In this document: in pieces, positions 33,583-44,164 of the stretch
How the letters are laid out: each line of letters starts with the position of its first letter
How positions within the stretch are numbered: the first letter of the stretch is position 1
From: an uncultured Bacteroidota bacterium
Lineage (GTDB): Bacteria > Bacteroidota > Ignavibacteria > Kryptoniales > JAKASW01
Assembly: GCA_963790995.1 (NCBI GenBank)
Contig: CAWBQQ010000001.1
Coordinates: 2,007,268 to 2,071,267, forward strand
DNA: 64,000 bases
Direction of reading: 5' to 3'
Notes under the pieces: generated by a model
What the model saw: the letters and a program-made list of their open reading frames with translations, nothing else
Database searches by the model: none
Told to the model about the DNA's origin: nothing
Program-made: the position numbers and the translations under genes

Positions 33583-35214
33583 ATGAACGCAATGGAGACA
33601 ATAATGGATATAAATGAAGTCGCGGGTGAACCTGCTAACATTCTGAGAATGCCGTGCACGAATATAGGGAGATGGCTGTACTCACGGGCTTCGAACTCGA
33701 ACCGCGCAAATCTCCTTTCCAACTTTATTGCCTGCCTGATCCTTGTCCAGTTCGGCTACTCAGCCGTCTATGGGCAATCGCCCAATGCCGAGAAATACGA
33801 TTGGCTCCAATTCAATTTCGATCCACAGCACAGCGGTAACGATATAAAGGAAGCCATAATCACTCCACAAAACGTTGGAAGCATGCATCAGATTTTCAAA
33901 ACATTGCTGCTGTCGACTGCCGACGGAGCGCCTGCTTATCTCAGCGATATTCAAACTCAATACGGCAAAATCGATATGATTTTTCTGACGGCTAAAGACG
34001 GTCACATTATTGCTCTTAATGCGGCGGACGGAAGCATAATCTGGAACCATCAATACGGATCGGGCGCCTATCGAATAAACAACGGGTACCAGCCGACTTA
34101 TACTACGTCGTCTCCTGCAATCGATCCTGAACGTGAATTTGTCTATAGCTATGGCCTCGACGGCTATGTTCACAAATACAGAGTCGCAGATGGAAAAGAG
34201 ATTAAAGGCGGAGGCTGGCCGGAATTGTGTACGCTGAAGCCGTTTGATGAGAAGGGCTCTTCGGCGCTTGCAATCGCCACCGCGAAGGACGGAGATTCAT
34301 ATCTTTACGTCGCGAACGGCGGATACTTGGGCGACAGAGGAGATTATCAAGGACATTTGACAACGATTAATTTGCATGATGGTACGCAATACGTGTTCAA
34401 TGCAAACGGCAGCAGCCAGACCGTCCACTTTGTCGAACGACCGGGCGAACCTGATTGGCCGTCAGTTCAGAACGCGATATGGGCAAGATCGGGAGCTGTT
34501 TATGATTCAATTACGGACAGGATCTACGTGGTTACAGGCAACGGCCCGTTTAATCCGAAGGAACACAATTGGGGAGACACGATACTGTCGCTCAACCCGG
34601 ATGGCACGGGAACTGACAGCAGTCCCGTTGACAGCTATACGCCAAAAGACTTTCAACAATTAGATAAGAAAGATCTTGATCTCGGCAGCACCGCACCGGC
34701 AATAATCCCCGTACCCGATAACTGTCTCGTCAAAGACCTTGCAGTTCAGTCAGGGAAGGACAGAGTATTACGTCTCGTCAATCTTGCCGATCTCAGCGGG
34801 CATGGAGGACCAGGCAACACGGGCGGAGAGATTGGAAAGATCATCGACGTTCCCTCCGGCGAGATGGTTTTTACAGCACCCGCCGTTTGGGTAAATCCGC
34901 ATGATAAATCTTCATGGGTCTTCGTCGGAACCTATGATGGACTTTCTGCATTCAAATTGCAGGTTGACAAAAAGGGGAAGCCGAGCCTTAAGCTTGTATG
35001 GAATCAATCGGACGGAAGCAGCTCCCCGATCATTGCGAACGATGTTTTGTATTGTGCGGTCAGCCGCAGCATCCGCGCAATGGATCCGGTCACCGGGAAA
35101 GTTTTGTGGCGCGACACGAATATCGGAAAGATACATTGGGAAAGTCCGATACTTGACAATGGAGTTTTGTATATCACGGATGAGTCGGGGAATTTGACAG
35201 CTTACGGATTATAA
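33583..35214 (+). CDS. Exported PQQ-like beta-propeller repeat protein
   Basis: DW.QF.FD..HSG opening, ALNAADG.IIW, SSP.I, DLDLGS..P, ESPI...G.LY repeats; true start may be downstream. Confidence 0.82.
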   Translation: MNAMETIMDINEVAGEPANILRMPCTNIGRWLYSRASNSNRANLLSNFIACLILVQFGYSAVYGQSPNAEKYDWLQFNFDPQHSGNDIKEAIITPQNVGSMHQIFKTLLLSTADGAPAYLSDIQTQYGKIDMIFLTAKDGHIIALNAADGSIIWNHQYGSGAYRINNGYQPTYTTSSPAIDPEREFVYSYGLDGYVHKYRVADGKEIKGGGWPELCTLKPFDEKGSSALAIATAKDGDSYLYVANGGYLGDRGDYQGHLTTINLHDGTQYVFNANGSSQTVHFVERPGEPDWPSVQNAIWARSGAVYDSITDRIYVVTGNGPFNPKEHNWGDTILSLNPDGTGTDSSPVDSYTPKDFQQLDKKDLDLGSTAPAIIPVPDNCLVKDLAVQSGKDRVLRLVNLADLSGHGGPGNTGGEIGKIIDVPSGEMVFTAPAVWVNPHDKSSWVFVGTYDGLSAFKLQVDKKGKPSLKLVWNQSDGSSSPIIANDVLYCAVSRSIRAMDPVTGKVLWRDTNIGKIHWESPILDNGVLYITDESGNLTAYGL

Positions 35215-35362
35215 TAGGCTAAGATCAGGAGGCAAAGCCATGCCACGGCTTGTGGGGGATGGATTGAAATAAACGATGGACAGGTTTAATCAGCAGATGT
35301 ATCGGCGTCATTGAACCAAACCGCGTGGTCGGTCGTCAAATATTCTAAATCACGGAGGTTGC

Positions 35363-36127
35363 ATGAAAACGAGTTTGCTGACTTTGAGTGCCGCGGGGTT
35401 CTGTATCTATTTATCAGGTTGTATGGTTGCGCAGGAAACGCTTTATCGTGCCGATCCTGTATCCAAAGAGACTATCTGGTACTCGGGAGAAGAATATCAA
35501 ACCCAGACCAAGGATAGTCTCACGGTGTCGGTCGCATTTGAGTATGAATTGGGCGGCAGCATGACCTTTTACATGGTGGTCGGCAATCAAGGATCCGGCA
35601 CCGTATTGGTTGCACCGGAGAAAATCTATTATTATGGCACAGATGTGCTGATAGATCATTTCACAAAAGACACAACAATAAAGGTCGATACGGCTTATGC
35701 AATTAATCCTGAGAGCCAGTTGACTGGAATCAACCGACAAATGGCACAAGCAAATGCGGCATACTCCACAAATAACAATATTAATGCTGCATCGGCGCTG
35801 TTGCAGCTTGTGGGAGACGTTGCAACAATCGGTAAGAATAAGACCGGGGAAGAGCAAAAAGAAGAAGAGCAAAACCGCCATGATCTCAAAAAGTCCGAAA
35901 GAGATAACCAGGCTACTTACAGCTCGACAATTGACCAGTTAAGCCAAGAAAAAGATTATTGGTTGAATGCCACGCTGCGGAAAACGACCCTTTTTCCGAA
36001 TACTGCCGTTGCCGGGAAAGTTTGTTTCACGGTGGATTCAAACCTTCAAACGTTCAAGTTGATTGTTCCAATTGATTCTGCTGTGATTGAGTTCGATTTC
36101 AAGCAGATGCCGGTTGCTGACCGGTGA
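35363..36127 (+). CDS. Hypothetical lipoprotein
   Basis: GGAGG RBS; lipobox LSGC; beta-sandwich-like ends with a central coiled-coil segment. Confidence 0.8.
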   Translation: MKTSLLTLSAAGFCIYLSGCMVAQETLYRADPVSKETIWYSGEEYQTQTKDSLTVSVAFEYELGGSMTFYMVVGNQGSGTVLVAPEKIYYYGTDVLIDHFTKDTTIKVDTAYAINPESQLTGINRQMAQANAAYSTNNNINAASALLQLVGDVATIGKNKTGEEQKEEEQNRHDLKKSERDNQATYSSTIDQLSQEKDYWLNATLRKTTLFPNTAVAGKVCFTVDSNLQTFKLIVPIDSAVIEFDFKQMPVADR

Positions 36128-37433
36128 CTTTCTGCGGGAGTTCTTGAAGCCGGCTCGAGATTCCGATCTTCTTTAGAAGTTCGAAGGGCATTTCCCCGCC
36201 GGCAAAAATAAAGACAAACTCGTTGCTGAGTTTCATGTCGCCATCCGGTGTTATAAGGGTTACGTCGTCTTCACGAATTTCTTTTACCTCTGAGTTAAAT
36301 ACCACATTTACTTTCCTATTCGACATTGCTTCCACAATGTGACTTTTGTTCCGTTCCTTGATTCGCGTGAATTCACCTTTGCGATATGAAAGTGTTGTGG
36401 CGTTGTTTTTCTGGATGGATAAACCGATGACGGCTTCAATTGCGGAATCGCCGCCGCCGACAACAAGGATGTGACTGTTGCTATAAGTCGATGTGTCGAT
36501 CAGGCGGTACATAACTTTGGAAAGCTCTTCTCCGGGTACGCCAAGTTTCCGTGGTGTGCCGCGCCTGCCGAGTGCAAGTACCACATTATCGGCAGTCGCT
36601 CGAATCGTAGTGCTCGTAATGGAGAAAAATTCGTTTACCCGTTGTATCTCCTCTACTTTTTCATTTGTTCTTACATCAAGTTTGGCCTTATCAATGATTT
36701 TTTGCCACGTGTCGAGCAGAACTTCTTTCTTTACATCCGTCAATTTCAATTTGCCCCAGATGGGAAGTTCAACCGGAGAAGTCATGACAACTTTTGCCCG
36801 CGGATAATGAAGGATTGTTCCACCGATGTCGCTTTGCTCGAGGACTATGTATTTCAGATTCTTATCTTTGGCGCTAAGGGCTGCAGCAAGTCCGGCCGGT
36901 CCGGCTCCGACAATAGCTACATCATACTCTGCCTGATGAGTGGATGGCTTCTTAGCTATGTACTCGACTGCGGCTCTCGCTTGTGAAACGGCATTTTTTA
37001 TTAATCCAATTCCACCAAGTTCCCCGACTATGAAAACTCCTTTGACATTCGTTTCGAAATTTTCATCGATATCAGGAAGATCAGCGCTTCGTCCGGGTTT
37101 TGCCATCAATAATTGAATTGCGCCGACGGGGCAAGCATCTGCACAGAGTCCATGGCCGATACATTTAGCACCATGGATCAACATTGCTTTTCCTTCGATG
37201 ATGCCGAGCACGTCTTCTTCAGGACATGCTTTCACGCATCCGCCGCAGCCGATGCAATTGATGACATCGATGTGAGGATGAACGGTTGCTCCTTCATGGA
37301 GACCGCTGATCTTTAACTCCTGGAATTTTTTTAGCGCTTTAGCCTCCTTCGCTTTTAGGCGGCGAACGTAGGGAATAACAGTCAGCAAAATCAAGACGAC
37401 GACGATCAGTAATGTAATGGTTGTCTGATTCAT
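36099..37433 (-). CDS. Membrane-anchored ferredoxin-domain / thioredoxin-reductase-like (TrxR-type FNR/YpdA-like) flavoprotein
   Basis: N-terminal TM; CIGCGGCVKACP and CIGHGLCADACP; GAGPAG (FAD), GGGDSA plus YRK (NADPH); lacks the TrxR CxxC. Confidence 0.9.
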   Translation of the reverse strand: MNQTTITLLIVVVLILLTVIPYVRRLKAKEAKALKKFQELKISGLHEGATVHPHIDVINCIGCGGCVKACPEEDVLGIIEGKAMLIHGAKCIGHGLCADACPVGAIQLLMAKPGRSADLPDIDENFETNVKGVFIVGELGGIGLIKNAVSQARAAVEYIAKKPSTHQAEYDVAIVGAGPAGLAAALSAKDKNLKYIVLEQSDIGGTILHYPRAKVVMTSPVELPIWGKLKLTDVKKEVLLDTWQKIIDKAKLDVRTNEKVEEIQRVNEFFSITSTTIRATADNVVLALGRRGTPRKLGVPGEELSKVMYRLIDTSTYSNSHILVVGGGDSAIEAVIGLSIQKNNATTLSYRKGEFTRIKERNKSHIVEAMSNRKVNVVFNSEVKEIREDDVTLITPDGDMKLSNEFVFIFAGGEMPFELLKKIGISSRLQELPQKVTGQQPASA

Positions 37434-37444
37434 TCTGGTTTTTC

Positions 37445-39061
37445 TTAAAATCTAAATCCTATTTCGGCAGACGCATTAATGCTGTTCATGGTCGCATCGA
37501 TGACATCGTCCACTTCCACAGATGAATATATTCTCGATGAAAAATCGTAATTCAGGAATCCTGAAAGTGTATGGGTTACATAGGTCTGTTGCAAGGTCGA
37601 AACAGAAATACTGTAGACATCATAACGGAATGTAATGGAAAGGCGGTCGAAAAACATGCGGTCGATATCGGCAGAGAAATCGTGCCCGTTTGTATATTCT
37701 CCGACAATACCGAGGTACTGCACGCCCGCATTTATGCCTGTGCTAAGAATGTCGCCGGCTCGCGTGGAACCGCCGAGAGTATGTTCATCGCGTGAGAATT
37801 CACTGCTTGTGTTGAGAGTCGCGTTTGCAGATACGGTTATCACATCCGTCAAATGGGCAGTCACGGATGCGCGATAACCCTGCAAAATATTTCTATCGAT
37901 TAAAGAATCCGGGATGTTTTTCATCGACTGGAAGAGGTAAATGTTTCGTGAGGCATCGTAGCCGATGTTGGCAAATAGCCATTCCGCCGGATAATAATTT
38001 GCTGAAAAATATGTATCCGAAAAATTGAGCGTAGATTTTCTAACACCGTTGGAGAGGCTGCTTAAATCAATTTCCGACGTTTCGTAAAGATATAATTTTG
38101 TTCCTAGAGAGATAGAATTTTGGGCGTATAAGAAATTACGGTCAAGATTTCCCCCGACCATTTGCAAGCCGTAGGCGATTGTGCCATCATATTGATGGAA
38201 GAAATCGGAGCCGGAGTGATAGTTCAAGAAGAACGCAGTTCTTGTTCCGCTGAAGCTCAGGGACGAAGGAACATCGGCAGCAGCTCCACCGAGAACTCCT
38301 GCGGTAAAATTATTCACGCGGTAATAAAATTGTGCACCGTCAAAAGTTCCGATCCCTCCGACGAACTGCGACGTCATCCGTCCGATGCCGTACCCCATTG
38401 AAGCGTCCGGCAAATCGCTTACCAGTGAAGCGCGGTAAAGGTTATGTTGGAATCCCGTCGCATTTCCAAAGATAGAGTAGTTGTCTGTTCCATCATAAAG
38501 GCTTTGGTCGTCCAATGAAAGTACCATGCCGGTTCCGAGAACATTTGAAACGTTTACCATCACGATCCCCGCGGGCTGGTTCAGATTGAATTTAGAATCT
38601 TCCGCAGAAATAAAATTATATTGAAGACCTATCCTTCCCGAAAAGACATTCTCGCGAGGTTGCTTTTCTGCAAGCGGAGTAATGTTAAATGCCACCGGCA
38701 TTTGGGTTGTGTCCGTTTCTGTAGAATTGGTTCCGGGTTCGGTTGTTTCGATGGACATGACCACATCATCCCCGGTGGCAATTGTGTCTGATTGTGATAT
38801 TATCCGCAGGGCGCTCGAACTGTCGGCTACGGCAATCACTGCGGCCGTTCCGGCATTTACGTCTTTGTGAAATATTTCTGCCGTGTAGCCAACGGCAACA
38901 CCTTCCAGACGGCCGGCGTTAATGTAAATAACCGTTCCGGAAATATATGAGATGGCAAACTTATCCTTTCTGAAGGCGTTCCAATTCCTATTTCTCGCCT
39001 GTGCCACGACATGCAACGTAAGGAATACAGCAAGAACTAATCCGATCGTTTTCGTCCGCAT
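37445..39061 (-). CDS. Outer-membrane beta-barrel protein (porin partner of the multiheme cytochromes)
   Basis: Signal peptide; small N-terminal beta domain (IYINAG..EGV.VG), T-rich linker, many amphipathic beta strands, C-terminal EIGFRF; start overlaps the cytochrome stop. Confidence 0.85.
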   Translation of the reverse strand: MRTKTIGLVLAVFLTLHVVAQARNRNWNAFRKDKFAISYISGTVIYINAGRLEGVAVGYTAEIFHKDVNAGTAAVIAVADSSSALRIISQSDTIATGDDVVMSIETTEPGTNSTETDTTQMPVAFNITPLAEKQPRENVFSGRIGLQYNFISAEDSKFNLNQPAGIVMVNVSNVLGTGMVLSLDDQSLYDGTDNYSIFGNATGFQHNLYRASLVSDLPDASMGYGIGRMTSQFVGGIGTFDGAQFYYRVNNFTAGVLGGAAADVPSSLSFSGTRTAFFLNYHSGSDFFHQYDGTIAYGLQMVGGNLDRNFLYAQNSISLGTKLYLYETSEIDLSSLSNGVRKSTLNFSDTYFSANYYPAEWLFANIGYDASRNIYLFQSMKNIPDSLIDRNILQGYRASVTAHLTDVITVSANATLNTSSEFSRDEHTLGGSTRAGDILSTGINAGVQYLGIVGEYTNGHDFSADIDRMFFDRLSITFRYDVYSISVSTLQQTYVTHTLSGFLNYDFSSRIYSSVEVDDVIDATMNSINASAEIGFRF

Positions 39062-39888
39062 CATCCTCCTCCGGTTGGATGGCAACGATAACATGCGGAG
39101 CTCTCATAGATGTAGCCCTTAACATTTGCATGTTGAGAATCCATCCGGGATTCCGTATGCTCATGGCAGTTTATGCACGCGAACGTAGAGTAATTGGGCT
39201 GTGCCGCGTGGCAGTCGGTACAGGCGTTCCATACTCCCGGCCTGTGCGTGTCACCTGCGTGGATCGGAAAATATGGGTGGGGAAAAAAAGCGGCGGGCTG
39301 CCAAGTCAAAGCTCTGTGACAGACTGCGCATTCGGTATTGAATCCGGCCGTCATATGGTTTGGGTTTTGAGCTGCGATGTACTCGCTTTGATGGCACGCA
39401 ACACATTCGCTTGGTGTGTCACGATATCGGTTTCCGACGTGACAGCTTAAACACGGCACTGCTTCGTGGGCGCCTCGCGTAGGAAATTGTGTTAAATCAT
39501 GGTCGAAGCTTGCCTGCCATGACATTCCTTCTACCGTATGACACTGCGTGCAGTCGGTACCGAATCCCGCGGCTCGATGGTCGATGGCAATCGCTGCATC
39601 ATAATCTTTCTGATGGCACGAAAAACAATCGCGAGGCGTGTCTGTAAATCTTAATCCTGCATGGCAATCTTTACATGCGACATTTCGATGTTCGCCGTAA
39701 AGTTTAAATCCGGTTTCGGAATGGTCGAACTTCATCGGCGAAGCCAGCTCGGTCCAGCCTTGCGTCGTGTGACAGTCAGTGCATTGCAAATTAATATCAC
39801 CATGAGGAGATGCCTGAGCCAGGCAGTCGGCGTATGCGAGCATTGTTACAACAATAACGAAAATTAATTTTGTGCAATTGTTCATCAT
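39061..39888 (-). CDS. Decaheme c-type cytochrome
   Basis: Signal peptide; 10 CxxCH motifs counted (CTDCH, CKDCH, CFSCH, CTQCH, CLSCH, CVACH, CAVCH, CTDCH, CINCH, CYRCH). Confidence 0.95.
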   Translation of the reverse strand: MMNNCTKLIFVIVVTMLAYADCLAQASPHGDINLQCTDCHTTQGWTELASPMKFDHSETGFKLYGEHRNVACKDCHAGLRFTDTPRDCFSCHQKDYDAAIAIDHRAAGFGTDCTQCHTVEGMSWQASFDHDLTQFPTRGAHEAVPCLSCHVGNRYRDTPSECVACHQSEYIAAQNPNHMTAGFNTECAVCHRALTWQPAAFFPHPYFPIHAGDTHRPGVWNACTDCHAAQPNYSTFACINCHEHTESRMDSQHANVKGYIYESSACYRCHPTGGG

Positions 39889-39890
39889 GT

Positions 39891-41540
39891 TTATCCCGCC
39901 GCCGAATGACAATCGGTGCATTTGTTTCCTAATGGTTTGTACTTTACAGTCTCTTTGCCGTTCATCACAACCGACGCATGACATTTCGAGCAAGGTACAT
40001 CGGCGTGTTTTCCCGTGAGCGCGAAGGACGATTGAGTGTCGTGATTGAAAATGAGCTTATGCCAGCTATCGGCGATGTGGCATCTCGCGCAATCAGTCGA
40101 GCCTTCAAGCTGGAATTGTCCCTGGTGTTCATCGGAATGGCATGACGAGCATGCTGTATCCAATCCAACATATTTTATGGGCAGCCACGGGTCCACCGGC
40201 TTCACGTGGCATTTGCTGCATTCGACTTTCGCGTGTGCTCCACGGAGAGGAAATTTTGTTTTATTGTGAGAAAAATTCGGAAGGCTGGCCCACGAATCCG
40301 TTATGTGGCACGTCTTGCATCCGTTGGTCATCTCTGCTTTGAACTGATCTTTGTGAGTATCGGCGTGGCACGTTATGCATTTAATGGATCCGTTCCAATG
40401 AAATTGCATTGTTGAGGGAGCTTTAACCTTGTTCAGGAGATGACACTCAGAACATGGCACGGCGAGATGCGCCCCATCCAGGACAAATCTTCCTTTTTGA
40501 TGATCGGCGATTGTATAAGTTGCCAGAGTCCAGCCGGCTACAGTGTGGCACGATTCGCATTTTCCTTTGTCCGGTCTGTCGGCAAATTGTCCTGCGTGAC
40601 CATCTGAGTGGCAGTCGGAGCATAACTGAAATCGCACAATGTGGAATCCGAATCCGCCGCTGACATTTCTTTTCCTCGGGTCGCTCTCGTGGCACTGTGC
40701 GCATTTCACGCCGGCATGTTTGCCCAATAGAGGAAAAGAAGTCTTAGAATGGTCGAACTCTGTTTTGCTGATGGTGATAAAGCTTTCGGTCATATGGCAT
40801 GATGAACAGGGCTGCTTGAATTGTCCTTTGTGTGGATCGGCGTGGCAATCAGAGCATGATGAAAATTGCATCTGCGTGAACTTTACGGTCTTATTGTCTC
40901 TCAATTTTTCATCGTGGCATTTGAAACAATTGACGTTTTTATGCTGACCGGTAAGCGGATAGCTGGTTAGGTCATGATTGAAGTTATCTGCGGGATTCCA
41001 ATGGTCTGTGCTATGACATGCTGAACAAGATTGGCTAAATTGTCCTTTATGAATATCTTCGTGACATGACTCGCATTGGGTCGATAATCCTAGAAAAGTT
41101 GTTTCTCTTCTAACGACGGGGAGAATCTTAACATCTTGTGCGGCGATATCATTTGGATTATGGCAGTCGCGGCATTTGATGGTTTTATGCTTGCCATTCA
41201 AAACAAATCCAGTTGTGCCATGATCGAACGATGCGGTGTTGAACCGGATGATTTGATATTTGCGCCCAAGGTGATCAAGATGGCACTCGGTACATGACAC
41301 TGCACTAACTGTCGGATGGTATCCTATGCGCCGTTCAATGCTTGCTTCGATAGCTTTGTGACAGGCAAGACACTTATTATTCGATATTAATTTTTCGACC
41401 GTATGACATTTGGTGCAGTTCTCAATTCCTTCGAGTTGGGCATGTCCTGAATAGAGCGGGCCGGGTGAAATCTGAGCATAAGCACAGGCGGCGATAGAAA
41501 TCTCAAGACACAGAGATAACCAAATTTTTCTATTGACCAA
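39891..41540 (-). CDS. 20-heme c-type cytochrome
   Basis: Signal peptide (AYA-Q); 20 CxxCH motifs counted, arranged in about 90-aa three-heme repeats. Confidence 0.96.
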   Translation of the reverse strand: MVNRKIWLSLCLEISIAACAYAQISPGPLYSGHAQLEGIENCTKCHTVEKLISNNKCLACHKAIEASIERRIGYHPTVSAVSCTECHLDHLGRKYQIIRFNTASFDHGTTGFVLNGKHKTIKCRDCHNPNDIAAQDVKILPVVRRETTFLGLSTQCESCHEDIHKGQFSQSCSACHSTDHWNPADNFNHDLTSYPLTGQHKNVNCFKCHDEKLRDNKTVKFTQMQFSSCSDCHADPHKGQFKQPCSSCHMTESFITISKTEFDHSKTSFPLLGKHAGVKCAQCHESDPRKRNVSGGFGFHIVRFQLCSDCHSDGHAGQFADRPDKGKCESCHTVAGWTLATYTIADHQKGRFVLDGAHLAVPCSECHLLNKVKAPSTMQFHWNGSIKCITCHADTHKDQFKAEMTNGCKTCHITDSWASLPNFSHNKTKFPLRGAHAKVECSKCHVKPVDPWLPIKYVGLDTACSSCHSDEHQGQFQLEGSTDCARCHIADSWHKLIFNHDTQSSFALTGKHADVPCSKCHASVVMNGKETVKYKPLGNKCTDCHSAAG

Positions 41541-41787
41541 TAGCCTCTCCAGAATTTTGTGGCTCTAGCTCCTATTTCGGACCCTCTGCCAAATATGCAA
41601 TGCCAGCTGTTAATCCTACTTGATGTCTGAGTTCACTAAAGAAAAAGCTTTTCAAATGTTCGTATTCTTTAATGCTCTAAGTTTTGACGCGGTAACAGAT
41701 TACTGAAGTGTCGCCCCTTTGCTTGAAAATATCGAGATCTGGACGAGCCATATCCTCTTGATCATGTTTGATAATACAAATTTCTTA

Positions 41788-42678
41788 TCAAAAAATCCAA
41801 GTGTATCCGAAAGTCACTGCCACGCCCACATGTATGATAAGAATTATAAGAACTATCAGAGAGAAGGGAAGGTGGATAACATGCCAGTAATGAAAAACGA
41901 GGCGAATTTTCTCCAGAACGAGGATCCGTTGCTGTAAGACAATTCGGCGTTGAGCCGCGGCGCAGATCTTTTTAACTAAATCGGCTCGGACAGAATGTCT
42001 CTGCAGGATTTTGTGAACTTCATTCCGGTAGTTCCACCTTGAAAAATCTGCTTTAAGAAGATACCAGAAAAGCTTGAAGAAACCTGCTCTTGAATTATCA
42101 ATCTGCAAAACACCGGCTTCGTCTATTTGTTGAAGCAGATCGCTTCCGAGAGAATATTGGGTATTTAAAGATTGTAATAATTGCTGCCGCTTGTCTTCGA
42201 GTTCTTTTACAGTAAGTTCGTGGCCTTCGATATTTTTTGGTATGAATCTATAAAAATATCTGCCGATGAAACCACTGAGAACAACCGCGGTCATGCACCA
42301 GAATCCCGCGCCTGCGATGCCTCCGAACTTGAATGTTGTATGGTACATTATAAGAATCGGGCCGACAAGGCACATGAAGATATGAAAATCGAGATAATCC
42401 CTTATTTTTCCGAAGTGAGCGAGCTTTTTTACACGCTTTCTCGTCGAGTAAACTATTACACCAATAAAAATCATAGCTGTGCCGATAACGCCGTAACCGT
42501 GACTTTCTATTCCTTCTGGTTTCAAACTATCATACCGCGCATACAATGGTCTTTCTTGAAGAGGTGTAAGATAGTATGAATAATTTCTCGCCCAGATTGT
42601 GAGAGCGGTTAAAGTTCCGACTATTATCAGAAAGAAGACAAAGACTTTATGCGGGAGTTCCGCGATGCTTGGTTTCAT
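41788..42678 (-). CDS. Inner-membrane protein with conserved His residues (ferric-reductase/cytochrome b-like)
   Basis: Five or six TM segments; YLDFHIF, MYHTT, SGFIGRY, WHVIHLP, IIHV candidate heme-b ligands. Confidence 0.8.
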   Translation of the reverse strand: MKPSIAELPHKVFVFFLIIVGTLTALTIWARNYSYYLTPLQERPLYARYDSLKPEGIESHGYGVIGTAMIFIGVIVYSTRKRVKKLAHFGKIRDYLDFHIFMCLVGPILIMYHTTFKFGGIAGAGFWCMTAVVLSGFIGRYFYRFIPKNIEGHELTVKELEDKRQQLLQSLNTQYSLGSDLLQQIDEAGVLQIDNSRAGFFKLFWYLLKADFSRWNYRNEVHKILQRHSVRADLVKKICAAAQRRIVLQQRILVLEKIRLVFHYWHVIHLPFSLIVLIILIIHVGVAVTFGYTWIF

Positions 42679-43390
42679 GAAGAATTAGTCAACTAGTTCG
42701 GCGTCTGCGAAGAGAAAATCTGATCGCCAATGAGTAATGCCTAAGTCCCATCATGAAAGATAAGATTTTCAGGCTCAGGAACATAGGGTCTGGAATCTTA
42801 TAAGCTTTCTGCTTGGAGTAGAAGCACATAAAGCAACCTTTCAAAAATCTAAAAGTAAATCCTCGCGCGAATCCCCCATACATAGACCGTCCGCCGAAAA
42901 GCCCTTGACACTATGAATTTAAGGACATCTGTGAGAATGCTTTCATGGATGCCTGTACCGTCATCTGATTTTGGGTAGGTCATGTGGTCTACGTATCAAA
43001 ACTGTGGACTCGTCTTATGCTCCCGATCTGGCATAACAGGTTTTAGAGGGTGCAATAAGCAACATTGGATACCATGACGTTAAAGGTCCCATGGGACCCG
43101 GCCCCTCACTAAATGCCCATTCCTGTTCCTTCCATGGAAGAACAAATGTGTTTGCGGTGACAGGAACCGCATCGCAATTAAATTTCTGCCCCCATGCACC
43201 GGGTACTTTTCGGTTGGTCACGGAGGGACTAAGGGGTTCGCTGCTCTTTATTTTTTTCTGTGTCCGGCTGAGCAGGCGATGCGCCGCAGCCTTCGTGGCC
43301 GAGCACAAATTCGTACGACCCGGGGAGCAGATGGGCCAAAGCTCTTTGTCCGTCCATGATATGGAAACATGCAATTCAAGCTCACTGTTG

Positions 43391-44164
43391 TCACTGCTTC
43401 AGGATTTCAAACGCCATCTCAGCCGCAGCTTGTTCCGCGGCTTTCTTCGTTTTTCCTGTACCGGTCCCACAAGATTCTTCTCCTATCAGCACTTCAACCG
43501 TGAATACCCTATCATGGTCTGGTCCTTCTTCCTTTATAAGATTGTACCGTGGGGAGCCAAGTCCGCGGGCCTGAGAAAACTCGAGAAGCGCGCTCTTAAA
43601 ATTCTTATCGAGCGCATCGAACAATTCACTGCCCACCTGCTTTTCTCTGGGCATGACCGTTTTTGCAACAAACTTCTTCGTAACATGTATTCCGCTGTCA
43701 AGATAAATTGCGGCTATTATTGCCTCGAATGCATCCGAAACAATTGTCTCGTAGCCTTTTTCGATAGCGTGTTGGGCGCTGTTGCTCATGTCCAAAAAGG
43801 AAGACAGGTTAATCTTAGCGGCGCATTCTGCGAGCGCGTGCTGGTTGACGAGGAGGCTTCGTAGCCTGGTCATCTGACCTTCGTCAATGTCCGGAAATTC
43901 AACAAATAATAATTCGGCAACCAAGAAATCGAGGATTGCATCGCCGAGAAACTCCATGCGCTCATTGGAACGCCTTTCAGCGCGGGTCGCGTTAATGTTT
44001 TCTGCGGCAGGAATGGATAATGCCGAACGGTGGGTTAATGCCTCCGAAAAGTAGCTTTCATTTCTGATTCTTACCCCCAAAGTTTTCTCAAGCTCACGCT
44101 TCTTTTTAAGATGCCCGCGCCGGGGAAACCCCTTAAAGATTTTCTTCGAAGAAAATAGCATCAA
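43391..44164 (-). CDS. rnc: Ribonuclease III
   Basis: ALTHRS, NERMEFLGDA, DAFEAIIAAIYLD, dsRBD (GPDH, KKAAEQAAA). Confidence 0.98.
   Translation of the reverse strand: MMLFSSKKIFKGFPRRGHLKKKRELEKTLGVRIRNESYFSEALTHRSALSIPAAENINATRAERRSNERMEFLGDAILDFLVAELLFVEFPDIDEGQMTRLRSLLVNQHALAECAAKINLSSFLDMSNSAQHAIEKGYETIVSDAFEAIIAAIYLDSGIHVTKKFVAKTVMPREKQVGSELFDALDKNFKSALLEFSQARGLGSPRYNLIKEEGPDHDRVFTVEVLIGEESCGTGTGKTKKAAEQAAAEMAFEILKQ

Follow-up and report, generated by a model that had tools for sequence, protein, structure and literature searches.

A PCC3-like porin-cytochrome gene cluster in a Bacteroidota genome, with a putative dihaem inner-membrane protein inherited together with an Fe-S flavoprotein that may feed it from NAD(P)H

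In a stretch of 64,000 nucleotides from an uncultured Bacteroidota bacterium of the Kryptoniales (assembly GCA_963790995.1, contig CAWBQQ010000001.1, positions 2,007,268 to 2,071,267, hereafter the window), five open reading frames (ORFs) follow one another in the same direction on the minus strand. The first encodes an inner-membrane protein (IMP), the last a flavoprotein, and between them are genes for two multihaem cytochromes c and an outer-membrane protein. Their layout is as follows, in window coordinates.

41788-42678, minus strand: IMP gene, an ORF of 296 amino acids (aa) with 12 histidines and five hydrophobic helices.
41541-41787, minus strand: 247-nt intergenic gap that separates the IMP and 20-haem genes, without any ORF of at least 80 aa.
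39891-41540, minus strand: 20-haem cytochrome c gene, an ORF of 549 aa with 20 CxxCH motifs.
39061-39888, minus strand: 10-haem cytochrome c gene, 275 aa counted from the second-start ATG, with 10 CxxCH motifs.
37445-39061/39064, minus strand: outer-membrane barrel gene, about 538 aa without cysteine, predicted to form a barrel.
36099-37433, minus strand: flavoprotein gene, 444 aa, with a membrane anchor followed by Fe-S and FAD/NAD(P)H domains.

The two cytochrome genes are 2 nt apart, the stop of the 10-haem gene overlaps the start of the barrel gene, and 11 nt separate the barrel and flavoprotein genes. The only larger gap is that of 247 nt between the IMP and 20-haem genes; judging from the coordinates of the relatives' stretches, a gap of comparable size is found at this place in close relatives. 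It holds no terminator-like site on the minus strand. Scans of the cluster region for sigma-70-type promoters and for terminators were uninformative, a Bacteroidetes-type promoter motif gave 0 matches in the window, and an Rfam search of positions 35000-44000 gave no match. A preliminary description of this DNA had reported five co-oriented minus-strand genes with these haem-motif counts and these short spacings, and the ORF list agrees with it throughout.

Does the same set of genes occur elsewhere? Among 41 related genomes, 23 carry the IMP, and 19 stretches around IMP matches were compared. All five genes are present in 16 of them; two others end at contig ends, and one is a distant variant. 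Two gene orders were found, that of the window and one in which the flavoprotein gene directly follows the IMP gene. A scan of species-representative genomes yielded 547 stretches with an IMP relative, the best 80 of which were analysed (distant members may differ). The names attached to these 80 loci include Kryptoniota, Ignavibacteria, Melioribacteraceae, Saprospiraceae, Prolixibacteraceae, Lewinellaceae and others, and one locus belongs to a cultured strain, Maribellus luteus XSD2 (L092). In 50 of the 80, at least 9.5 kb follow the IMP gene downstream. Within these long loci the flavoprotein was present in 50/50, the 20-haem cytochrome in 49/50 and the barrel in 46/50, and 46/50 hold all three together. 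In three of the four long loci lacking the barrel, huge cytochrome frames or the end of the stretch come next. The grouping of the five genes is not due to chance, since the same set recurs in related genomes and public loci. The preliminary description had named, as one of the tests on which it could fall, whether the IMP and flavoprotein accompany the cytochromes in other genomes; the co-occurrence turned out to be strong, in 16/19 stretches of the relatives and in 46/50 long loci.

Regarding gene order among the best 80 loci, the IMP and flavoprotein genes are neighbours in 44, some of them overlapping by 12 nt, and the window's order is found in 24. The flavoprotein gene is on the opposite strand in one locus, and 11 are too short to tell. 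Directly after the IMP gene, a small ORF with an N-terminal hydrophobic stretch was seen in L062 (5240-5674) and 17 other loci, many of them Ignavibacteria-type (e.g. L109, L093, L080, L067), where it fills a gap of 600-1100 nt before the flavoprotein gene. By tblastn, this ORF has no counterpart in the window.

The two end genes of the cluster are also inherited together. Among the 41 relatives, 21 genomes have a flavoprotein match at E 1e-115 or better, and the IMP is present in 21/21. The sole IMP-positive genome of the genus without such a match holds just a fragment of the IMP, located at a contig end. Both genes were also scored in 401 genomes drawn evenly from the phylum:

IMP-positive genomes (44/401): full-length flavoprotein in 42, none in 2.
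IMP-negative genomes (357/401): full-length flavoprotein in 0, none in 357.

Both exceptions (G213 and G432) have stop codons inside the IMP match, and one genome of the draw carries two copies each of the IMP and the flavoprotein. Partial matches to the flavin domain, in frames of 780-1059 aa, come from a separate paralogous family found in 17/401 genomes, IMP-positive and IMP-negative ones. The IMP and the flavoprotein are tightly associated in inheritance. In one protein of 790 aa (P0121), the IMP, an anchor helix, the Fe-S domain and the flavin domain follow each other in a single chain, in an order that fits both predicted topologies. Two further joined proteins were set aside as likely frameshifted or chimeric gene calls: P0122, in which the IMP is joined to a cytochrome and its fifth helix is replaced by unrelated sequence, and P0158, which joins an N-terminal part of the IMP to a C-terminal part of the flavin domain. 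In another family of the same class (G037, L031:5141-12694), a distantly related IMP-like gene (21% identity) was seen near a 10-CxxCH frame. Its neighbours encode an FHA-domain protein, a 781-aa flavoprotein of another kind with Pyr_redox, FHA and 2Fe-2S parts, and a cNMP-binding 4Fe-4S protein.

The IMP shows five hydrophobic segments in a Kyte-Doolittle scan, with a positive-inside pattern, and a helical insert of about 115 aa, predicted to be cytoplasmic, separates helices 4 and 5. The loop at residues 79-93 averages 6.3 Lys plus Arg and 0 Asp plus Glu, and the insert at residues 143-257 averages 20.6 Lys plus Arg. Because of this enrichment in both, the loop and the insert are placed in the cytoplasm and the C-terminus in the periplasm. 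Helices 3 and 5 each carry an Hx13H pair (H99/H113 and H269/H283, respectively), and helix 4 carries SGFIG, an SGxxG motif. No variation is seen in these four histidines, or in S135, G136, G139 and W265, across alignments of 19, 29 and 10 sequences, the last with identities as low as 20%. In full, the motif of helix 5 is W265-x3-H269-x13-H283 and that of helix 3 is Y95-x3-H99-x13-H113; at position 95, the Y of the window protein is a W in most other family members. With paired histidines 14 residues apart, one histidine of each pair would therefore sit near each membrane face, and the IMP is a putative carrier of two haems b.

No family was matched by the IMP in Pfam (E up to 0.1) or in NCBIfam, and hmmsearch of its alignment against PDB sequences returned chance-level coiled-coil matches alone (best E 0.33). 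In a protein atlas it matched nothing but unnamed clusters of Acidobacteriota and Gemmatimonadota. The family is nevertheless large: when 1.84 billion cluster representatives were searched with its profile, 3951 matched at E up to 0.001 and 658 at E up to 1e-30.

The IMP encoded in PCC3 and PCC4 gene clusters has been described as a protein of about 300 aa with five helices, an SGxxG motif in helix 4 and Wx3Hx13H in helices 3 and 5 (He et al. 2017, PMC5566968). Judged against this published motif description, the window IMP matches the PCC3/PCC4 type in its five helices, its SGxxG motif and its two Hx13H pairs; the preliminary description had noted that PCC3 clusters, too, carry an inner-membrane protein. 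The one departure from the PCC3 description is the helix-3 motif, which begins with Y and not W. The likeness goes beyond this protein: in both systems a barrel gene stands beside a multihaem gene, the cytochromes are haem-dense and the IMP has about 300 aa. The periplasmic cytochrome of PCC3 has about 21 haems (20 here), and its cytochromes use about 26-27 aa per haem (about 27 here), according to the same article (PMC5566968).

The differences from PCC3 are several. As far as that article describes them, PCC3 clusters occur only in Alpha-, Beta- and Gammaproteobacteria, whereas the window cluster comes from a Bacteroidota lineage. Its account of the clusters mentions no flavoprotein (PMC5566968), and one is present here. 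PCC3 barrels are described with up to 42 predicted strands versus 22 here, and PCC3 extracellular cytochromes with a median of 34 haems versus 10 in the second cytochrome of the window, where there is no separate large extracellular multihaem cytochrome gene.

The preliminary description had seen in the IMP and the flavoprotein a split NOX/ferric-reductase arrangement. As a functional analogy this stands. In NOX and ferric reductases (FRE), and in MsrQ-Fre, electrons go from NAD(P)H to a flavin, then over two stacked bis-His haems b held by two helices to an outside acceptor, and the histidine spacing of 13 residues is shared with the IMP. MsrQ with the flavin reductase Fre is itself a split version of the NOX/FRE arrangement. 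As a statement of homology, the proposal finds no support. No Pfam match of the IMP to the ferric-reductase domain PF01794 was found at E up to 0.1, and hhalign of the IMP alignment against five PF01794 proteins of relatives, a shallow comparison profile from one genus, gave a probability of 0.1. The IMP has five helices, not six, and the flavin module is like thioredoxin reductase (TrxR) and YpdA and is joined to a ferredoxin domain, instead of being FNR-like. Homology of the IMP to NOX was thus rejected and the analogy retained: since the IMP has no detectable relationship to PF01794 and the flavin module is not FNR-like, 'split NOX' is a functional analogy only.

Electrons may reach such a protein by another route. 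In a quinone-linked conduit the IMP would be a quinol oxidase or quinone reductase, electrons would pass through the quinone pool, and the flavoprotein would be an accessory, either an NAD(P)H:quinone reductase acting at the quinone site of the IMP or a device keeping the haems poised. Quinone sites are common in dihaem membrane cytochromes, such a route would be better for conserving energy, and in the window the IMP gene is 247 nt away from the other genes of the cluster. A quinone-active dihaem cytochrome b is also what the authors of the IMP class proposed, in the same text in which they likened it to ferric-reductase domains (PMC5566968). However, the IMP has no similarity to known quinol-oxidising cytochrome b families, modules of which are easy to recognise at other places in this genome. 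That IMP and flavoprotein are strictly co-inherited, that their genes often overlap and that they may be fused in one protein points instead to direct electron exchange between them, and the parts are explained without a separate quinone step. On balance we consider the quinone-linked conduit unlikely.

The genome as a whole contains 12 ORFs with at least three CxxCH motifs. A second cytochrome cluster lies outside the window (L117:4122-11358, corresponding to G000:C1 at about 2278100-2285400 of the same genome). It encodes a 903-aa protein in which 18 CxxCH motifs are fused to a cytochrome b of the formate-dehydrogenase-gamma/NiFe-hydrogenase type, then a 4-haem protein, a 435-aa ORF without family and frames with 14 and 4 CxxCH motifs. 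The 903-aa fusion presumably resembles CbcL. A membrane protein with cytochromes was also seen at L118:2983-6122 (G000:C1, about 2949000-2952100, again outside the window), where a protein similar to cytochrome b6 and ExtP (235.6 bits versus a cut-off of 325) stands beside frames with 11 and 4 CxxCH motifs; from its sequence this looks like another quinol-linked module. Unlike L117 and L118, the five-gene cluster has no recognised quinol-type cytochrome b module. The preliminary description had called it self-contained, which is plausible at most; the same genome also holds the cytochrome clusters with quinol-oxidase-type modules.

In the flavoprotein, Pfam recognised a ferredoxin-like 4Fe-4S dicluster domain of the Fer4 families at residues 54-108, followed by Pyr_redox_3 at residues 174-432 (E 5.6e-45). 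The motifs are CxxCxxCxxxCP and CxxHxxCxxxCP for Fe-S, GxGxxG for FAD and GGGDSA for NAD(P)H, and downstream of the last, Y350-R351...R357 is an NADPH-type motif. Invariant residues are C60, C66, C70, C91, H94, C97, C101, G176, G178, G181, G326-D329, Y350 and R351. In the second Fe-S motif (residues 91-101) H94 is invariant in 29/29 sequences, and in the first motif the second cysteine, C63, is not a conserved position of the alignment. This combination suggests that the chain may end in a His-ligated 4Fe-4S or a 3Fe-4S cluster. The N-terminal hydrophobic helix is preceded by 0-1 Lys/Arg, and 6-9 are found in the 20 residues after it, in 28/29 aligned sequences. Because this anchor is predicted to be N-out, the Fe-S and FAD domains are placed on the cytoplasmic side.

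The nearest NCBIfam family to the flavoprotein is YpdA (TIGR04018), with 178.9 bits, under the cut-off of 339.9. The nearest solved chains for residues 170-432 include YpdA/Bdr (7a7b, E 1e-26) and a ferredoxin-NADP reductase (FNR; 3ab1, E 3.5e-10), along with thioredoxin reductases and TrxR-type ferredoxin-NADP reductases. Compared with YpdA/Bdr and TrxR-type FNR, the window protein adds a membrane anchor and an Fe-S domain, and it is inherited with the IMP. With all seven of its cysteines in the Fe-S domain and no redox-active cysteine pair, it cannot act as a TrxR- or YpdA-type disulfide reductase. The obvious reading is that it would exchange electrons among NAD(P)H, FAD and Fe-S clusters.

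Used for assimilation or protection, the same wiring could be a surface reductase that, for example, brings Fe(III) into solution for iron uptake or supplies repair in the periplasm or at the surface with electrons. Eukaryotic ferric reductases and MsrQ-Fre offer the analogy, the NADPH-type motif Y350-R351...R357 would suit it, and the route would in any case conserve no energy. Two loci, moreover, have the IMP and flavoprotein and no nearby cytochromes. However, thirty haems here, and far more in relatives, would be a heavy iron cost for iron acquisition, and dense multihaem wires beside barrels are a hallmark of dissimilatory conduits. An assimilatory or protective function is, in our view, very unlikely.

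Both cytochromes begin with a signal-like sequence visible in the translation and have about 27 aa per haem. Repeats of the c7/c3 type are present in both, as seen in Pfam matches to Cytochrome_C7 (E 1.1e-24 across seven stretches of the 20-haem protein, E 3.3e-10 in the 10-haem protein). The 20-haem protein, which is likely to be a wire spanning the periplasm, is the best-conserved cytochrome of the module: in the 80 public loci, the first cytochrome frame has mostly 20 or 23 CxxCH motifs. The 10-haem cytochrome is likely the haem chain inserted in the barrel, because its gene abuts the barrel gene. In relatives, the barrel-side cytochrome has many more motifs, up to 87 in a frame that ends at the locus end, or is split in two. 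Giant frames beside the conserved first cytochrome were seen at L094:14306-20851 (87 CxxCH, the frame ending at the locus end), L056:13919-19087 (70 CxxCH) and L054:12374-17458 (67 CxxCH). Such counts of 67-87 are comparable to the largest count described for PCC3, 85 (PMC5566968).

The outer-membrane protein matches no Pfam family. An AlphaFold2 model, made on a 34-sequence alignment, had a mean pLDDT of 82.2 and a pTM of 0.64, and shows a signal peptide, a small beta domain (about residues 30-105), a disordered linker (108-134) and a 22-strand barrel (139-537), the count of 22 being obtained by merging two adjacent strands listed apart in DSSP. By Foldseek, its best PDB matches are the usher barrels of FimD/PapC and large porins, with E down to 1.7e-10. 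The barrel announced in the preliminary description is thus predicted with good confidence, and 22 strands would in principle be wide enough for a haem chain.

Several known conduits share parts of this plan. In MtrCAB, MtoAB and PioAB a decahaem gene also adjoins the barrel gene, the decahaem protein being presumably threaded through the barrel, and like MtoAB and PioAB the window has no separate surface cytochrome gene. The MtrA/DmsE model (TIGR03508) gave 53.8 bits for the 20-haem protein, versus a cut-off of 192.2, and no match for the 10-haem protein. The MtrB barrel has 26 strands versus 22 here, the window barrel has no Pfam family, and the Mtr system takes its input from the quinol oxidase CymA, which is absent here. 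In Geobacter, Pcc (OmaB-OmbB-OmcB) and Ext follow the same porin-cytochrome logic, and with ImcH, CbcL and CbcBA they draw on quinol via c- or b-type cytochromes of the inner membrane, whereas the place is taken here by an unclassified IMP and a flavoprotein. Tmc and Hmc of sulfate reducers bring a periplasmic multihaem cytochrome, a membrane cytochrome b and a cytoplasmic Fe-S protein into one transmembrane path; they come from other protein families, with no outer-membrane part and no NAD(P)H flavoprotein. In the flavin-based extracellular electron transfer (EET) of Listeria, a dedicated NADH-oxidising flavoprotein, Ndh2, reserves electrons for export, via quinone and again with different families. 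Geobacter-type porin-cytochrome clusters have already been reported in Ignavibacteria (PMC4245776, PMC7399161 and PMC6137239), so that electron-transfer capacity in this lineage is not itself new. The new element relative to known conduits is the obligate flavoprotein partner of the IMP.

Taken together, these data are best accounted for by a PCC3-like EET conduit in which a putative dihaem IMP is fed by a cytoplasmic NAD(P)H flavoprotein, a reading to which we give a probability of roughly one half. The analysis shows directly the anatomy of the genes, their domains, the predicted barrel, the conserved synteny and the strict co-inheritance of IMP and flavoprotein, all of which fit one continuous path. 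From these we infer haem b binding, docking of the IMP with the flavoprotein, the NAD(P)H donor, the outward direction and independence from quinones. The flavoprotein, on the cytoplasmic face, would oxidise NAD(P)H at its FAD and pass electrons via its two Fe-S clusters to a haem b at H99/H269, near the cytoplasmic side of the IMP. The membrane would then be crossed to a second haem b at H113/H283. From there electrons would enter the 20-haem periplasmic cytochrome and go on to the 10-haem cytochrome threaded into the 22-strand outer-membrane barrel, to leave the cell for an external acceptor, e.g. Fe(III) minerals, humic quinones, an electrode or a partner cell. Such an outward, quinone-free route would by itself conserve no energy and would serve as an electron sink rather than a coupling site or a main respiratory route; the flow might be helped by the membrane potential. 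The EET role of the cluster is likely and the partnership of IMP and flavoprotein probable. Our overall confidence stays at about one half because outward, quinone-free flow from NAD(P)H specifically has, on the sequences at hand, about even odds.

Electrons could also run inward through the same parts. They would come from Fe(II) outside the cell, from a cathode, from Fe(0) or from a syntrophic partner, and the flavoprotein would reduce NAD(P)+ or another cytoplasmic acceptor. TrxR-type flavoenzymes are reversible with ferredoxin-like partners. PCC3 clusters are known from Fe(II) oxidisers and were modelled as inward conduits in the text of PMC5566968, and a PCC3 IMP gene was reported to be up-regulated in iron-oxidising Sideroxydans cells (10.1101/2025.02.27.639646). 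Pfam and NCBIfam, on the other hand, reveal no energy-coupling element in the IMP. Electron entry would oppose the membrane potential, and the step from Fe(II) at neutral pH to NAD(P)+ is uphill by several hundred millivolts. Inward flow is quite unlikely.

A number of observations weigh against outward conduction from NAD(P)H through a dihaem IMP. Haem binding by the IMP is deduced from its conserved histidines and NAD(P)H use by the flavoprotein from its motifs. No family, profile or solved structure ties the IMP to a known haem b protein. Its AlphaFold2 model, on a 19-sequence alignment, is of low confidence (pLDDT 65.2, pTM 0.45), and Foldseek found no PDB structure resembling this low-confidence model at E up to 0.001. 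Neither cytochrome of the window's cluster, which has just the 20- and 10-haem genes, is obviously surface-exposed. Its flavoprotein gene is at the far end, and its IMP gene is set apart by 247 nt. The co-occurrence counts overstate the number of independent events, because genomes of one lineage are not independent, and the P0121 fusion is given little weight because it comes from a single contig and is possibly a frameshift artefact. L062 and L097 carry the IMP-flavoprotein pair with no multihaem gene within 9-10 kb, so the pair is not tied solely to such conduits; in these two loci its partners may be encoded elsewhere, or it may use other acceptors. If electrons flowed outward from NAD(P)H without quinones, the membrane potential would be dissipated and not built up, which would be odd for a main respiratory route. 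Finally, those who defined the IMP class put forward a quinone-active cytochrome b, with electrons flowing inward from Fe(II) (PMC5566968), and a quinone site in the IMP may be compatible with all present data.

Two plus-strand ORFs of the window converge on the cluster:

33583-35214, plus strand: PQQ/BamB-like beta-propeller gene, 543 aa (PQQ_2, E 8.7e-11).
35363-36127, plus strand: ORF of 254 aa without family match, sharing 29 nt with the flavoprotein gene at the latter's 3' end.

Both were considered as parts of the module and dropped, as they adjoin the cluster in 1/19 and 0/19 of the relatives' stretches, respectively.

No published description of a link between the IMP and a flavoprotein was found in full texts, taken without supplements and mostly from outside the subscription journals; redox genes nearby, or clusters from outside the Proteobacteria, may be listed in Supplementary Tables 3-6 of PMC5566968. 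An IMP linked to cytoplasmic NAD(P)H would give PCC3-type clusters a testable function for their unexplained inner-membrane protein. Every characterised Gram-negative EET route begins, to our knowledge, at the quinone pool, with CymA, ImcH, CbcL or CbcBA. A conduit linked to an NAD(P)H flavoprotein would, if true, be a second connection from metabolism to minerals, humics, electrodes and partner cells. Ignavibacteria and other Bacteroidota are common in sediments, aquifers, hot springs, wastewater and anode biofilms, and the genome-based reading of their EET capacity and energy yield would change.

More tentatively, and with some doubt on our side, the IMP and the anchored Fe-S flavoprotein might form an unrecognised quinone-independent transmembrane unit for electron export, NOX-like in action and built of unrelated parts, that is a standard EET fitting in Ignavibacteria, Kryptonia and other Bacteroidota. 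Such a unit would plug cytoplasmic NAD(P)H into giant cytochrome wires, with 10 haems on the barrel side here and up to 87 motifs in relatives, and the wider IMP family of 3951 representatives, PCC3-type systems included, may likewise use cytoplasmic Fe-S partners. As the membrane potential would push electrons outward, fermentative or facultative cells could dump reductant on low-potential acceptors without a respiratory chain. Because the module is present in the cultured Maribellus luteus XSD2, the question is open to ordinary genetics and biochemistry, and a compact five-gene system leading from NAD(P)H to the cell surface would, if true, be of interest to bioelectrochemical engineers.

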